Assembly: GCA_035312485.1 (NCBI GenBank)
Contig: DATGBV010000107.1
Coordinates: forward strand, 1-55,729
Direction of reading: 5' to 3'
Origin: Flavobacteriaceae bacterium
GTDB lineage: Bacteria; Bacteroidota; Bacteroidia; Flavobacteriales; Flavobacteriaceae
DNA: 55,729 nt
Positions 34,696 through 39,530 of the stretch are shown here, in pieces. The notes under the pieces were generated by a model, which saw only the letters and a program-made list of their open reading frames with translations, did no database searches and was not told the DNA's origin. Every line of letters starts with the position of its first letter. Position 1 is the stretch's first letter. Both the position numbers and the translations under genes were made by a program.

Positions 34696-34806
34696 AATAA
34701 TATAATTTTAATGTTAAACAGTTAATACCATTGAACCTTTATTGATTCAACACTGCAAATATGAAATGGAATCAAAACTTTATTCGGTATTTACTTGTTT
34801 AAATTC

Positions 34807-34837
34807 GTTTGTAAATGTTTGTAGTCGTTTGTAAACG
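34807..34837. promoter_or_regulatory. Triple GTTTGTA direct repeat with exact 10-bp period
   Basis: gtttgtaaat-gtttgtagtc-gtttgtaaacg; the last unit forms the near-palindrome CGTTT-N2-AAACG. Confidence 0.7.
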
Positions 34838-34848
34838 AATTTTTTGTA

Positions 34849-34856
34849 TATTGCAC
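34849..34856. repeat. Left target-site duplication TATTGCAC
   Basis: Identical to 39175-39182; abuts the terminal inverted repeat. Confidence 0.93.
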
Positions 34857-34899
34857 GGCATCTATATACAATAAGGGACAAGAAAATATAATGATTTAA

Positions 34900-35006
34900 G
34901 TTAGCCAGATTTGGCTATTTTTTTTTGTGAAGTCAGACCTTTAGTCCACGATTGGAAAGCCACCAGTTCAGCAATCCAGAGCGTGAGCATCCTGCCGAAT
35001 AATTCA
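34900..35006 (-). ncRNA. Candidate small structured RNA (element RNA-L)
   Basis: TACCTTTG on the minus strand at 35010-35017; locally GC-rich; stems close with G-U pairs only on the minus strand. Confidence 0.4.
34902..34926 (+). terminator. Terminator just inside the left end (blocks read-in transcription)
   Basis: tagcca-gatt-tggcta followed by 9 T. Confidence 0.75.
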
Positions 35007-35083
35007 GACCAAAGGTAATTCTATCAAATAACGTGTTGCACTTGTTAATACATGGTAGTCTTAACATACGACCAAAATCGGTG

Positions 35084-35212
35084 CTATTCCTTTTTTTTAG
35101 GTTTAGGAACGGAAACCTTTAATACGTCGTCTAAAGAAGTGTTTATCTTAAGTTTCTTCTCATACTCTTTAGAACGCTCTTTAGGCTTTTTATCTTTCTT
35201 TTCTTTGTTCAT
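35084..35212 (-). CDS. Unannotated 42-aa lysine-rich protein
   Basis: MNKEKKDKKPKERSKEYEKKLKINTSLDDVLKVSVPKPKKKE*; same strand as the transposase. Confidence 0.65.
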   Translation of the reverse strand: MNKEKKDKKPKERSKEYEKKLKINTSLDDVLKVSVPKPKKKE

Positions 35213-35326
35213 TATATTGTAAAATTAGTGATTATAACAAAAGATTAACATTTAAACTGCAATATTTTTTAAATTTATTCGTCTAATTTATAAAGTATGT
35301 CTTAATATTATATTAAATAATTTTTT

Positions 35327-35365
35327 ACCTTTGCCCTCTTTTTTTATTAAATATTTATATATTTG
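35327..35365 (+). promoter_or_regulatory. Tandem -7 boxes upstream of the TA pair
   Basis: TACCTTTG (35327-35334) and TATATTTG (35358-35365). Confidence 0.55.
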
Positions 35366-35455
35366 ATAAGTTTAGTCCTTAAAAATTGATTAATAGCAAT
35401 AATTAATTTATCCATTGTGCTCAAAAATTAATTAAAATCAATTGAAAAAAAATAA

Positions 35456-36037
35456 ATGGGTTATACTAAATCTGAAATAGAAAGAATAGGAAACACCATC
35501 ATTTATCTTCGAGAAAAAATAAATGAACCGATTTCTAAAACCAAAGCTATAAAACTTCTTTATTTTTTAGAAGAATTTTCTATAAAAAAATATGGTAGGC
35601 CATTTTTAAATTTAGAATGGGAAGTTTGGCATTTAGGGCCAGTTTCAGAAGATTTATTTGCTGAAATAAATGAACCATTTATGCTTAATGAACATATTAA
35701 ACAATCTTACCTAAATGGTTTGGATGGCTGTTTTATTGAAACAAAACATGCTTTCAATGATGATGAATTTTCGGATGCAGACATATCATTAATGGATATT
35801 TTGATTGAAAATATTGGACATCTAAATGCGAATCAGTTAATCAAGTTAGCTCATAGGAAACATACTTTATGGTATAAAATTGCCAATGAAAATAATTTAT
35901 TAGAAAGTTTTAATAATAAAACAAAAACAACCACAGACTTTAAAATCAATTTATCAGAATTACTCACAGAAGATAAATTGGAAATTTATAACGCATATAT
36001 AGAATCTAAGGAAATTAGTAAATTATATGCAATTTAA
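35456..36037 (+). CDS. Panacea-domain (DUF4065/SocA/GepA-like) antitoxin
   Basis: KAIKLLYF...YGRP...W.LGPV motif, L..LAH...W; overlaps the downstream ORF by 11 nt. Confidence 0.85.
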   Translation: MGYTKSEIERIGNTIIYLREKINEPISKTKAIKLLYFLEEFSIKKYGRPFLNLEWEVWHLGPVSEDLFAEINEPFMLNEHIKQSYLNGLDGCFIETKHAFNDDEFSDADISLMDILIENIGHLNANQLIKLAHRKHTLWYKIANENNLLESFNNKTKTTTDFKINLSELLTEDKLEIYNAYIESKEISKLYAI

Positions 36038-36470
36038 TTCATTTGAAATTCTTTTTTTCCCTTCATTCAGGTTTAAAAATGGAGCAGCTCCTTTACCAAA
36101 ATTTTTTATTGCACTAAAAAAAGTAAAGAACAAATTAATTGTTGCAAGTTTACCTACTTCCCAAGACCATGTTCCAGATAATATAAAAGTTGAAGGATGT
36201 ATAGAATATCCTGATAAATGTATTAGTTGCTTCTGTTTTTTCAAGCAAAAAACAATTTGTGATGATACTGGTTTTAAATTTCACAAAGACACTTTCATTT
36301 ACGCAAGTGCGGTTGATACTTATAATTTGGGCACTCTAAAATCTTATTACCCGATTAAAGACATTGATTATTTCGTTAAAGGGAAGCTATCTAAAAAATT
36401 AGAAACTGAACTCTATCAATGTCTTAAAAATAGTTTTGATTTAAAAAGAGGTATTAAGAAAATCCTTTAA
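36027..36470 (+). CDS. Putative toxin partner, possibly PemK/MazF-like fold
   Basis: ILFFPSFRFKNG...KFFIAL...VASLPTS and C-terminal GKLS...helix pattern resemble PemK/MazF; coupled to the Panacea gene. Confidence 0.55.
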   Translation: MQFNSFEILFFPSFRFKNGAAPLPKFFIALKKVKNKLIVASLPTSQDHVPDNIKVEGCIEYPDKCISCFCFFKQKTICDDTGFKFHKDTFIYASAVDTYNLGTLKSYYPIKDIDYFVKGKLSKKLETELYQCLKNSFDLKRGIKKIL

Positions 36471-37405
36471 ATGTTTTCCGTCAACCTCTTATAACTCAAA
36501 ACACTTTCACTATCAACTAAAAACTTCTCAAATCTTTGTTGACTTGTCAAAGAACGTGTATTAAAACGAGCCGAAAACTCATCTAAATATCTTTCCAGAT
36601 GCTTATCACTCACTTGGTGGTAAATACCATAAAGACCTCTTTTAAGCAAACTCCAAAAGTTCTCTATTGTATTTGTGTGAACTCCACCCTCAACATATAC
36701 ATTTAAAGAGTGTCTTACATTGTCATGCGTATAATACTTCTTTAAATGGTTATATACTGGTGCTTCGTCTGAATAGATCGTAGAGCCTTTAGGCACGTGT
36801 TTAGCTATCAAGCTACCGACATTGTTTAAGTCGGCACTTGGCACGTGCTTTAATACTACTTTACCATTGCGCTCAATGATACCTACTACCATTTTTTTAG
36901 CTTTATATGGTTTACCCTCGTTTGTTAGACTATTATCCTCTAAAGAGCGTTTTTTAGGAAAGTGTTTGTTACTTTCCTTTCCACCTAAATAAGCCTCGTC
37001 AACTTCTACCATATTGTTTTCGCCTAACATTTGTGGTGCTTTATCTTTCAGCATTTCTCTAATACGGTGTAAAACAAACCATGCGGTTTTTTGTGTAATT
37101 CCTAAATCTAAAGCCAGTTGCACCGAACTAATCCCTTTTTTATGTGTTGTTGCTAAAAATATTGATGCAAACCAAGTTCTTAAAGGAATTTTAGAATTAT
37201 GAAAAATAGTACCAACTTTAACTGTAAACTTTTTATAACACTCGTTATTAGCGCATTTATAACCTCTAGTAGTCTTATATGTACGCTCACAACCACAATG
37301 AGGACATACAGGCTTACCGTTCCAACGGATCTGCTCATAATACTCTATACAAGTACTTTCTTCTCTGAAGTAGTCTAAAAGCTGTGGAAGTGATTTAAAA
37401 TTCAT
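36467..37405 (-). CDS. IS1595-family DDE transposase
   Basis: Zn ribbon CPHC...C...C, HTH GISSVQLALDLGITQKTAW, VEVDEAY, IYSDE, HTNTIENFWSLLKRG, YLDEF. Confidence 0.96.
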   Translation of the reverse strand: MNFKSLPQLLDYFREESTCIEYYEQIRWNGKPVCPHCGCERTYKTTRGYKCANNECYKKFTVKVGTIFHNSKIPLRTWFASIFLATTHKKGISSVQLALDLGITQKTAWFVLHRIREMLKDKAPQMLGENNMVEVDEAYLGGKESNKHFPKKRSLEDNSLTNEGKPYKAKKMVVGIIERNGKVVLKHVPSADLNNVGSLIAKHVPKGSTIYSDEAPVYNHLKKYYTHDNVRHSLNVYVEGGVHTNTIENFWSLLKRGLYGIYHQVSDKHLERYLDEFSARFNTRSLTSQQRFEKFLVDSESVLSYKRLTENI

Positions 37406-37425
37406 AGTTTCTAATTTTATATATA

Positions 37426-37453
37426 CAAATATACAGATTGTCCCAATAAATAC
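37426..37453 (-). promoter_or_regulatory. Transposase promoter with adjacent IR-core copy
   Basis: TATATTTG on the minus strand at 37426-37433; ttgtccca at 37438-37445 matches the right IR core. Confidence 0.6.
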
Positions 37454-37828
37454 CTAATATATTATAATGTATTTTATTAAAAAAACACATATTATTATTT
37501 TACATGTATTTATGATTGAATTTAAAGTGATTTAATATACTGATTATTAGCTTAATAAAAATAATTAAATGCAAATAGAGTGTAAAAATATTAAAAACAT
37601 TAATAAACGCTATATTTTGATTAAAGATGTTTAAAAATGGTTATATAATATCTTAAATCATTGAAAAATTAATTGATTGTATTAAAAATATTGTTTGAAT
37701 TGGCATAAATCAAGTTTAAAATCCCTATTTTGAATCTAATGAACAAGTAAAATTTATAAAATAATTGAATTGTCTTTGGATATTTTAAAATGTTTTCATA
37801 CTATTGTATTGCGATAAAATTTTACATC

Positions 37829-38602
37829 ATGAAAACAACACAAAGAAGTGCATCCTATCCGTCTTATACTATAAGATATAGTTTAGATATTTGTACTGCA
37901 ATTTACAAAAATTACGGCACTAATTACAGAGCATCCAGAGAGGAATTATCTGAAATACTTGGTATTTCGGTCGGAAATCTTACTCAAAAAGTAAGTGCTG
38001 CTGTCCAGTATGGGTTACTGGATTTAAAATCAAAAGAAGGATATAAGGTTTCGGATCTATTTGTTAAATGGTTTAGGCCTATAAATGATAACCAAATGGA
38101 AGAAGCATTAATAGAGGCTTTTAAATCTCCAACCTTATATGGTAATTTAATAGAGGTTTATGAGAATCATATTGTGCCTCCATTAAAACCATTATCTAAT
38201 ATATTACTACAAAGACATAGTATTTCTGAAAGTGCTTGTGAGAAAGCATCAGGTATTTTTTTAGAAAATGCTCAAGAACTAGAACTTTTAGACAATGAAA
38301 ACAGGTTGGTTTTTGGTAAATCACTAGACGTGGACTATGAAGAACCAGATGAAGAAGATAATTTTAATGGTATTCCTAAAAAAGAAAGTACTGATAAAGT
38401 TGTATTTCCACAAATTATTAAAAAAAATAATTCAAATGAGGGAGATAATTATAGTGGTAACTCTGTTCAAGACGGCGTTATAATAAATGTGCTTTTGAAT
38501 AATAGAAGAACAGCACAAGTAATATTACCAAAAGATGTTACTCCAAAAGATTGTGATACAATTAAAGACTGGATTGATATGATTAGAAAATCTTTTAACT
38601 AA
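37829..38602 (+). CDS. Uncharacterised cargo protein, tandem winged-helix-like N-terminal region, acidic linker, small C-terminal domain
   Basis: YPSY...REELSEILG...KVSAAVQYGLL...YKVS; start taken at ATG 37829. Confidence 0.65.
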   Translation: MKTTQRSASYPSYTIRYSLDICTAIYKNYGTNYRASREELSEILGISVGNLTQKVSAAVQYGLLDLKSKEGYKVSDLFVKWFRPINDNQMEEALIEAFKSPTLYGNLIEVYENHIVPPLKPLSNILLQRHSISESACEKASGIFLENAQELELLDNENRLVFGKSLDVDYEEPDEEDNFNGIPKKESTDKVVFPQIIKKNNSNEGDNYSGNSVQDGVIINVLLNNRRTAQVILPKDVTPKDCDTIKDWIDMIRKSFN

Positions 38603-38640
38603 AACAAAGAACCGCACTTATTTGTGCGGTTCTATATTTT
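38603..38640. terminator. Bidirectional terminator
   Basis: agaaccgcac-ttattt-gtgcggttct, T-rich on both strands. Confidence 0.85.
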
Positions 38641-38680
38641 TGCGAATAAAATTTTACAATCGGAGTGCGATTGAAAAGTG
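38603..38680 (-). ncRNA. Candidate ~75-nt RNA convergent on the winged-helix gene (RNA-M)
   Basis: TACATTTG on the minus strand at 38684-38691, hairpin caatcg-N5-cgattg, shared terminator, no ORF. Confidence 0.45.
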
Positions 38681-38849
38681 ATACAAATGTATAGAATAGA
38701 AAGCAACAAACCTAAGAAAATGGAAGATTTATTTAAAAAAAATGCGAAATTGTTGTGAGTTGGTGTTATATATAAAAATAAGAAAACAAACTAAAAATAC
38801 AATAGATTATTTTTTAAAAGATGTTTGTAAGTTTACAAAGAAATAAAAT

Positions 38850-39042
38850 AGAAAAGCACCCTAAAAAGGATGCTTAAAATATAAGGTTGTAATCGAAAGA
38901 CCTGCCAACATATACAGGTTGCAAGTTAAGTTAGACTTCCTCTCATAAAGGAATGAACTAAACACTCCAAAGATTACTTCTGAAATCCTGCTCTAACAGG
39001 TTGAAAAAGGTCGGTAGATACGTTTCTATCGGCTTTTTGCAT
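38850..39042 (-). ncRNA. Candidate ~190-nt multi-hairpin RNA (RNA-R)
   Basis: TACCTTTG on the minus strand at 39046-39053; terminator aagcatcct-tttt-agggtgctt at 38854-38875; two CAACCTGT...GCAGG hairpins. Confidence 0.55.
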
Positions 39043-39080
39043 TTACAAAGGTAACAAATTTGTTGTACAAAATTAAAAAA

Positions 39081-39099
39081 TTGTAACCGTTTGTAAACG
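39081..39099 (+). promoter_or_regulatory. Element-borne copy of the host GTTTGTA-repeat motif
   Basis: ttgtaaccgtttgtaaacg versus host ttgtagtcgtttgtaaacg (34819-34837), 17/19 identical. Confidence 0.65.
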
Positions 39100-39174
39100 G
39101 ATAATTTTACTTAACTTTATTTCGTTAATTAATTATAAATATTAGTCTCTTGTCCCATAATGTAAATAGACGCC

Positions 39175-39182
39175 TATTGCAC
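39175..39182. repeat. Right target-site duplication TATTGCAC
   Basis: Identical to 34849-34856. Confidence 0.93.
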
Positions 39183-39185
39183 TCC

Positions 39186-39530
39186 ATGCAAAAACAATGT
39201 TTGGAATGTGGTGATAAAATAGTGGGCAGAATTGATAAAAAATTCTGTAGTGATGGCTGTAGAAATGCATATAACAATAGAATAAATAAAGATTCTAAGA
39301 ACCTGATCAGAAACGTAAATAATAGGTTACGTAAAAATTATCGTATTCTTGAAGAATTGAATCCTGAACAAAAAACAAAAACCACGAGGTCTAAACTTAT
39401 AGAAAAAGGCTTTGATTTTAATTATATAACCACAGTTTATACCACCAAATCCGGCAACGTATATTATTTTGTATATGATCAAGGCTATTTGCCTTTAGAA
39501 GATGATTACTATGCTTTAGTGAAAAGGTAA
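39186..39530 (+). CDS. Conserved-looking C4 zinc-finger protein
   Basis: CLECG...GRIDKKFCSDGCRNAYNN; true start ATG 39186 (the ORF-track extension lies inside the IR). Confidence 0.8.
   Translation: MQKQCLECGDKIVGRIDKKFCSDGCRNAYNNRINKDSKNLIRNVNNRLRKNYRILEELNPEQKTKTTRSKLIEKGFDFNYITTVYTTKSGNVYYFVYDQGYLPLEDDYYALVKR

Follow-up and report, generated by a model that had tools for sequence, protein, structure and literature searches.

An IS1595-family cargo transposon inserted beside a repeat array at a short ssb gene in Flavobacteriaceae

The element and its locus

The stretch analysed here (the window: 55,729 nucleotides of contig DATGBV010000107.1, assembly GCA_035312485.1, from a Flavobacteriaceae bacterium) carries an IS1595-family cargo transposon of 4,318 bp at positions 34857-39174. 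The element lies between a short host ssb gene with an array of 10-bp repeats upstream of it and a divergently encoded regulator-like host gene (Table 1). The original prediction, made from sequence alone, of an intact 4.3-kb IS1595 element was borne out: its inverted repeats (IRs; 22 of 27 bp match), perfect 8-bp target site duplication (TSD) and intact transposase were all confirmed, and the element-free site that it anticipated occurs, with one copy of the 8-mer each, in two genomes of the same genus (G001 and G002). The same arrangement of IRs and TSD was also recovered around homologous transposases, in 45 elements with both ends and an 8-bp duplication. What the prediction took as novel was the mix of RNA units; it missed the main feature of the locus, namely, site-specific insertion at the ssb array.

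The 312-aa transposase matches NF033547 with 196.8 bits (cut-off 75), and PF12762 and PF12760 also score above cut-off; the zinc-ribbon and ISXO2-like DDE domains by which IS1595 transposases are assigned are thus both present. Its structure model (pLDDT 88) displays no extra DNA-binding domain, and Foldseek retrieved generic DDE folds only. Of 74 elements whose IR type could be assigned, 29 have, at the -7 box of the transposase gene, a copy of the IR inner word of their own type; a word of a foreign type never occurs there. No second copy of the element or its transposase was detected in the host assembly G000 (94% complete, 405 contigs). Contigs from two of three runs skip the element; depth is low, and other strains may be the source. 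The intact frame and perfect duplication suggest that the element may still be able to jump.

A scan of species genomes yielded 80 loci, to which 33 family-genome regions, 72 metagenome loci and one viral locus were added. The bounded set comprises 45 elements (window included) with both ends and an 8-bp duplication carrying at most one mismatch. The transposases include a main lineage, which is the window's own (tree support 100/100), and a second targeting lineage with 43-47% identity to it. Elements at the ssb site are 2.4-5.7 kb long, their named hosts belong to five families, chiefly Flavobacteriaceae, and only a small minority of family genomes carry an element. Phage and plasmid collections contain no such transposase at 60% identity or more; viral contigs contain one relative, which is not located at ssb.

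Insertion beside the array

By an independent protein criterion, ssb lies no more than 1.5 kb away from 42 of the 45 bounded elements, the window's included. Within 35 nt of end B (the array-facing end), a three-unit 10-bp array is present in 55 of the 67 elements of the main lineage and in 5 of the 6 of the second. No outgroup element (of 14) has it there, and it is never seen at end A. The background of the array score in the genome is approximately 1e-4, and 8 of 3.06 million positions in G000 score equally. As the array model derives from the elements' own flanks, the weight of the argument rests on the ssb count and on the outgroup, A-end and genome controls. In an even sample of 300 family genomes, all eight full-length main-lineage copies and five of the seven tree-placed second-lineage copies lie either at the array or within a tandem stack that ends at it; a single broken main-lineage copy does neither.

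The spacing is regular to the base. The offset between array and element end equals 9 or 0 modulo 10, that is, one helical phase, in 47 of 55 elements; an Aequorivita-Altibacter subclade of transposases uses a 7/17-nt register, and the other elements 19-20 nt. The duplicated 8-mers are distinct in 57 of 59 cases and have no consensus. Insertion leaves ssb on side B in 47 of 57 elements and on side A in 10, so both flanks of the array are used. Moreover, over the 25 nt compared, the two IRs are identical in 15 of 59 elements, in all of which end B faces the array. Oriented insertion despite identical IRs implies that something inside the element sets the orientation, plausibly the B-end unit described below. 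Since the inner IR words differ among targeting elements, the target is not read as a mimic of an IR; this idea was also rejected on register, the ACAA register of such a mimic lying 5-6 bp off that observed.

The site is also reused. Tandem elements 7-8 bp apart and ending at the array occur at four loci (L113, L070, L110 and L135). IR-like letters exactly 8 bp from the element end are present at 26 of 64 ssb-site elements versus 1 of 24 others; this offset accounts for 29 flanks, and other offsets for 0-4. Such letters may be in-register remnants of earlier occupants. In the remaining 38 of 64 ssb-site elements, the window's among them, there are no IR letters beside the duplication; hence, a prior end is not needed for insertion.

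A strong copy of the array occurs once in G000. A search with the array pattern gave matches in 17 of 22 other genomes of the family and in 24 of 301 of the phylum, almost always a single one per genome; a reversed control gave one match. Among the matches listed, the array mostly lies 5' of the 110-aa ssb, a few times 5' of an integrase-like gene, and three matches look like chance. G000 also encodes a full-length ssb paralogue with a tail (contig C113), and no array was found upstream of the full-length ssb in the five genomes examined. The 21 genomes whose array match is genuine all have the regulator-like gene, and winged-helix domains fill the structural match list for the C-terminal domain of its product (Z 3.5-4.8). 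OmpR-type winged helices bind direct repeats of 10-11 bp. Bacteroidetes SOS operators, e.g., CTAA-N5-TTAG or TTAC-AAATT-GTAA, have ssb in their regulon, as given in the available part of PMC8565304, and the array is unlike these LexA-like motifs when compared by description.

Several observations concern this site in other contexts. The genes behind the array at L216:1499-2755, L217:308-1540 and L218:1097-2419 are integrase-like, as labelled from their translations, and in L218 the gene runs divergently to a regulator-like paralogue; this hints at a small uncharacterised regulon. Another paralogue, 35% identical, is located in G000 at C61:3872-4216 and has no array upstream, and a copy of the host's regulator-like gene lies inside one element (L042:6936-7298). 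Short ssb genes occur two or three in tandem at L063:8792-10091 and L284. In L093-L107, the interval between ssb and the regulator-like gene varies by genus (GNAT-like, DinB-like and others, by eye) with no detectable IRs; this interval is a variable locus even without an element. A tract not connected with ssb is found at L215 (genome G552): a related unit is repeated there in tandem, perfectly and over a longer stretch, with a 10-bp period, upstream of an AlbA-like gene that adjoins a restriction-type gene.

Table 1. Features of the element and its host locus (positions in the window)
Feature	Position	Strand	Remarks
Host short ssb, 110 aa	34363..34695	-	PF00436; no acidic tail
Host array, ~five 10-bp pseudo-palindromic repeats	34780..34837	-	CGTTTRYAAA; first CG 19 nt from element end
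Left TSD TATTGCAC	34849..34856	.	8 bp
IR-B	34857..34883	+	array-facing end, downstream of transposase
Hairpin and T-run	34902..34926	+	predicted inward-facing terminator; fixed distance from B end
B-end structured RNA	34937..35033	-	boxA-like word (35024-35033), then four-way-junction fold
Conserved 42-aa basic open reading frame (ORF)	35084..35212	-	Bacteroidota -7-type box near ATG
Panacea (SocA-like) antitoxin, cargo	35456..36037	+	PF13274, E 8.5e-18
Predicted PemK/MazF-fold toxin, 147 aa, cargo	36027..36470	+	Atlas structure match
IS1595 DDE transposase, 312 aa	36467..37405	-	NF033547, PF12762, PF12760
Transposase -7 box with adjoining copy of IR inner word	37426..37444	-	predicted autorepression site
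257-aa protein, cargo	37829..38602	+	possible N-terminal winged helix; weak HTH_24
Short promoter-hairpin-terminator unit	38608..38691	-	convergent on 257-aa gene; weak small-RNA candidate
A-end RNA unit, ~190 nt	38854..39053	-	-7 box, structured core, terminator; recurrent cargo
Partial internal copy of host array	39074..39107	+	may replace promoter of displaced gene
IR-A	39148..39174	-	
Right TSD TATTGCAC	39175..39182	.	8 bp, perfect duplicate of left TSD
Host zinc-ribbon / long helix / winged-helix protein	39189..39530	+	candidate array binder; model pLDDT 92

End modules, RNA units and cargo

Behind IR-B lies an end module. In 63 of 66 main-lineage elements, the T-run of the predicted terminator stops at 58-73 nt from the B end, and the -7-type box of the 42-aa ORF is present in 41 of 59 such ORFs, mostly 4-5 nt 5' of the ATG. 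The word at 35024-35033 is one that we take to resemble boxA. The layout of fixed T-run plus boxA-like word is seen at the B ends of 58 of 66 main-lineage elements and of 5 of the 6 from the second lineage, and in no outgroup element (of 14); at A ends it appears in 3 of 66. In 49 of 64 cases, the outward strand of the B-end segment gives the better fold. In 26 members of the largest subfamily of its RNA, chosen from these 64, 85% of cells are paired, and 23 of the 31 pairs of the four-way junction are changed on both sides, which is above shuffles and slid controls, the latter comparison being favoured by the counted structures having been drawn by hand from single-sequence folds. RNAalifold alone recovered only parts of the B-end and A-end structures. 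A model of the B-end RNA (R1) finds matches in 6 of 151 family genomes, every one at an element end, and the two non-sister lineages have an RNA subfamily in common.

The A-end RNA was aligned from 15 elements and has a conserved -7 box, and in 13 of its 22 pairs both partners are changed; a DNA search of 300 order-level genomes gave only terminator-sized matches to it. The third unit, at 38608-38691, has a hairpin that is matched in three loci only. A promoter-like TACCTTTG at 35017 was rejected as such, because it forms part of a covarying RNA stem and shows no conservation as a promoter. Thus, the earlier picture, in which three RNAs each have their own promoter, holds only in part: two RNAs are conserved and covarying, the third is weak, and TACCTTTG is no promoter. 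Within the family, the predicted B-end RNA counts as a core module of the element end and the predicted A-end RNA as recurrent cargo. No Rfam family reaches the gathering score in the window, where matches by E-value are chance ones only, and the window has no tRNA. A strong internal copy of the array is found in 2 of 72 elements.

The protein cargo turns over: it differs in almost every relative, and its clusters are mostly singletons. In the window, a two-gene operon with a Panacea-domain antitoxin is formed by ORFs that overlap by 11 bp (36027-36037). For the toxin-antitoxin (TA) pair that had been predicted, the antitoxin is supported by its domain match, and the partner has a predicted PemK/MazF fold: the Atlas model of the 147-aa ORF gives TM scores of 0.57-0.69 to the MazF6 family, a lead only, and a feature score of 0.92 to a cluster with 11% PemK, and sequence searches of Pfam, PHROG and PDB found no match. 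The winged-helix cargo protein claimed alongside it corresponds to the 257-aa ORF, whose HTH_24 match (E 0.03) lies below cut-off and which has 34 unnamed homologues. The TA pair is a singleton among the 45 bounded elements and is replaceable cargo.

Cataloguing the cargo of related elements, as had been suggested, revealed NYN, RadC, RelA/SpoT, IrrE-like, P63C, DUF3800, SecB, GNAT, Panacea, Schlafen-AlbA and aspartyl-protease domains among 121 element proteins, most of which belong to no Pfam family. Of the 68 cargo proteins scanned, 12 match a PADLOC model, in several cases one for an accessory or candidate component; the same check, which had been proposed for the element, gave no match for the window's four proteins. 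Cargo turnover and the defence-type domains in relatives support the predicted role of such elements as putative mobile vehicles for addiction or defence modules. Between the transposase and the 257-aa gene, a gap of 15-20% GC (37406-37790), where relatives have a small ORF, is possibly a decayed gene. Recurrent proteins occur near the transposase among the 45 elements, namely, two small ones, a 68-aa type (L014:5712-5918) in 18, a type of about 70 aa (L031:3673-3894) in 14, and also a 165-aa family in 17; they have no Pfam or PHROG match and are absent from the window.

Recruitment of the transposase and comparison with known systems

Sequence comparison establishes the anatomy of these elements, their empty site, target preference, spacing and orientation, the reuse of the site and the turnover of cargo, and on this basis the following mechanism is proposed. 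A cargo-bearing IS1595 lineage would insert, oriented and helically phased, beside the single-copy ssb array, likely recruited by an array-bound host regulator; we hold this reading to be correct with a probability of roughly 0.55. The array would be the operator of the divergently encoded regulator-like protein, which most likely binds it and recruits the transposase; the transposase would contact the bound regulator and cut approximately two helical turns away, at a site that it does not read. The B-end unit (terminator, small basic ORF and structured RNA) would shield the element against the host promoter and probably decides which end faces the array. Because each new element would land on the same 8 bp, older ones would be pushed outward into tandem arrays; as the usual side of insertion keeps the array joined to the ssb promoter, the site would be a low-cost one. 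The TA pair would serve to maintain the element or to counter phage, and repeated landing would make the array a docking site for toxin and defence genes.

Several points weigh against recruitment by the regulator. The array model was trained on the same flanks that it scores, so the main-lineage count leans high, the ssb count being unaffected. The array is absent at 12 of 67 main-lineage elements, about one in six, with ssb still nearby in two of them. Three of five genomes with off-target copies have an intact, empty ssb site; in the other two, the site is occupied by another element or the array is weak. Transposase and ssb identities correlate (rho 0.36), which implies some inheritance or host-range structure. 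The rejection of a single clade of the main and second lineages (p-AU 0.0009) comes from a test whose two groups were named after the first tree was seen. Only five scattered residues are common to both targeting lineages and rare in the outgroup; thus, no clear contact patch was found in the transposase. For the regulator-like protein, winged-helix Z scores are low (4.8 at best) and Foldseek returned nothing at E 0.001, and its co-occurrence with the array is confounded by kinship.

The same evidence bears on other explanations. That the transposase reads the array directly, by sequence or DNA shape and with no host protein, is unlikely. In its favour, spacing differs by transposase subclade, as in the Aequorivita-Altibacter group, and one IR type and the array have in common ACAA words 10 bp apart; against it, that register does not fit the observed one, the same site is used by two non-sister transposases about 45% identical and by several IR types, and the transposase model lacks an extra DNA-binding domain. 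Slightly less likely still is that the B-end RNA or the 42-aa protein acts as a targeting adaptor for the array-bound host protein or the transposase. The restriction of the B-end architecture to targeting lineages, its RNA subfamily shared across both of these, and the orientation kept with identical IRs speak for an adaptor, but off-target elements have the RNA too, the 42-aa ORF was not detected among second-lineage elements, and tandem neighbours could simply swap ends. Moreover, guide-like pairing of the RNA with its own target is no longer than with foreign ones (longest 7.8 versus 7.7 nt, 53 elements). RNA-guided targeting is thus unsupported by exact matching, a test that short split guides could escape.

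It is improbable that RNA polymerase poised at divergent promoters attracts the transposase: there is a precedent for oriented insertion 15-17 nt from -35 boxes (PMC3942029, in its available part), and in the window the 8-mer of the TSD overlaps with a -7-like box belonging to the divergent gene, but just one promoter region per genome is used, and the distance is fixed to the array, on both its sides, and not to the -7 box. Most improbable of all is unspecific insertion, with the pattern left by selection or by one old inherited insertion. Off-target copies and the transposase-ssb correlation agree with it, whereas base-level spacing, one-sided orientation, use of both array flanks, distinct 8-mers, empty sites in the same genus and the small minority of occupied family genomes do not. 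Beyond recruitment by the regulator, a bolder and rather doubtful idea is that of a minimal Tn7-like system made from an insertion sequence (IS), with one transposase, a borrowed host winged-helix selector and an end-encoded RNA adaptor fixing site and orientation, common to two unrelated transposase lineages and building integron-like defence stacks at ssb.

Target choice by IS1595 elements has been little studied, and a 312-aa transposase that brings 2-6 kb of cargo to one site in one orientation offers a compact system for studying how a host guides targeting and, possibly, a tool for integration at a single site in Flavobacteria. As most cargo proteins belong to no family, the ssb site is a ready catalogue of candidate defence genes. 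The locus also points to an uncharacterised host regulon of array, regulator-like protein and tail-less ssb, and to two uncatalogued RNA families (B-end and A-end).

Tn7 inserts at attTn7 via TnsD, i.e., at one conserved site, with the cut site unread, at fixed distance and orientation, and with variable, defence-type cargo. The window's family resembles it in all these respects but has one transposase and no TnsC or TnsD; no Pfam match to TnsABC or TniQ/TnsD was found in the element proteins of the window or in 121 element proteins of relatives. Furthermore, tandem elements occur, which indicates that, unlike in Tn7, there is no target immunity. IS911 and IS30 insert next to IR ends, and abutting element ends are likewise seen here; in contrast, 38 of 64 ssb-site elements, including the window's, have no IR letters beside the duplication. 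The family differs from bridge RNA and CAST systems in that its RNA is not complementary to its own target in the exact-match test. In the accessible parts of PMC8832971, PanAT toxin-antitoxin systems near transposases are noted; the window's pair is similar in that a Panacea antitoxin lies 5' of an overlapping gene with a predicted PemK/MazF fold, and differs in that its putative toxin family has no Pfam match.

The p-MULT3/TnGBS elements also use a DDE transposase and, according to the available portion of PMC3942029, insert in an oriented manner 15-17 nt from the -35 boxes of many sigma-A promoters, with IR asymmetry setting the orientation. Fixed orientation and fixed distance from a host regulatory feature are thus common to both; however, the transposase is of the Mutator type there and of the IS1595 type here, many promoters are used there and one array here, and here orientation is kept even with identical IRs. 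Transporter IS (tIS), defined for IS1595 and IS66 as IS with passenger genes in the part consulted of 10.1101/2021.05.26.445724, share with the window's element the IS1595 transposase, short IRs, 8-bp duplication and passenger genes inside a single IS. A literature search whose scope excluded subscription papers and ISfinder found no description of IS1595 targeting ssb. Set beside tIS as described in that source, the family differs in its single-site oriented targeting, tandem stacking and end-encoded structured RNA: as a cargo IS it is ordinary in kind, and its single-site, oriented and reusable targeting is what is unusual.

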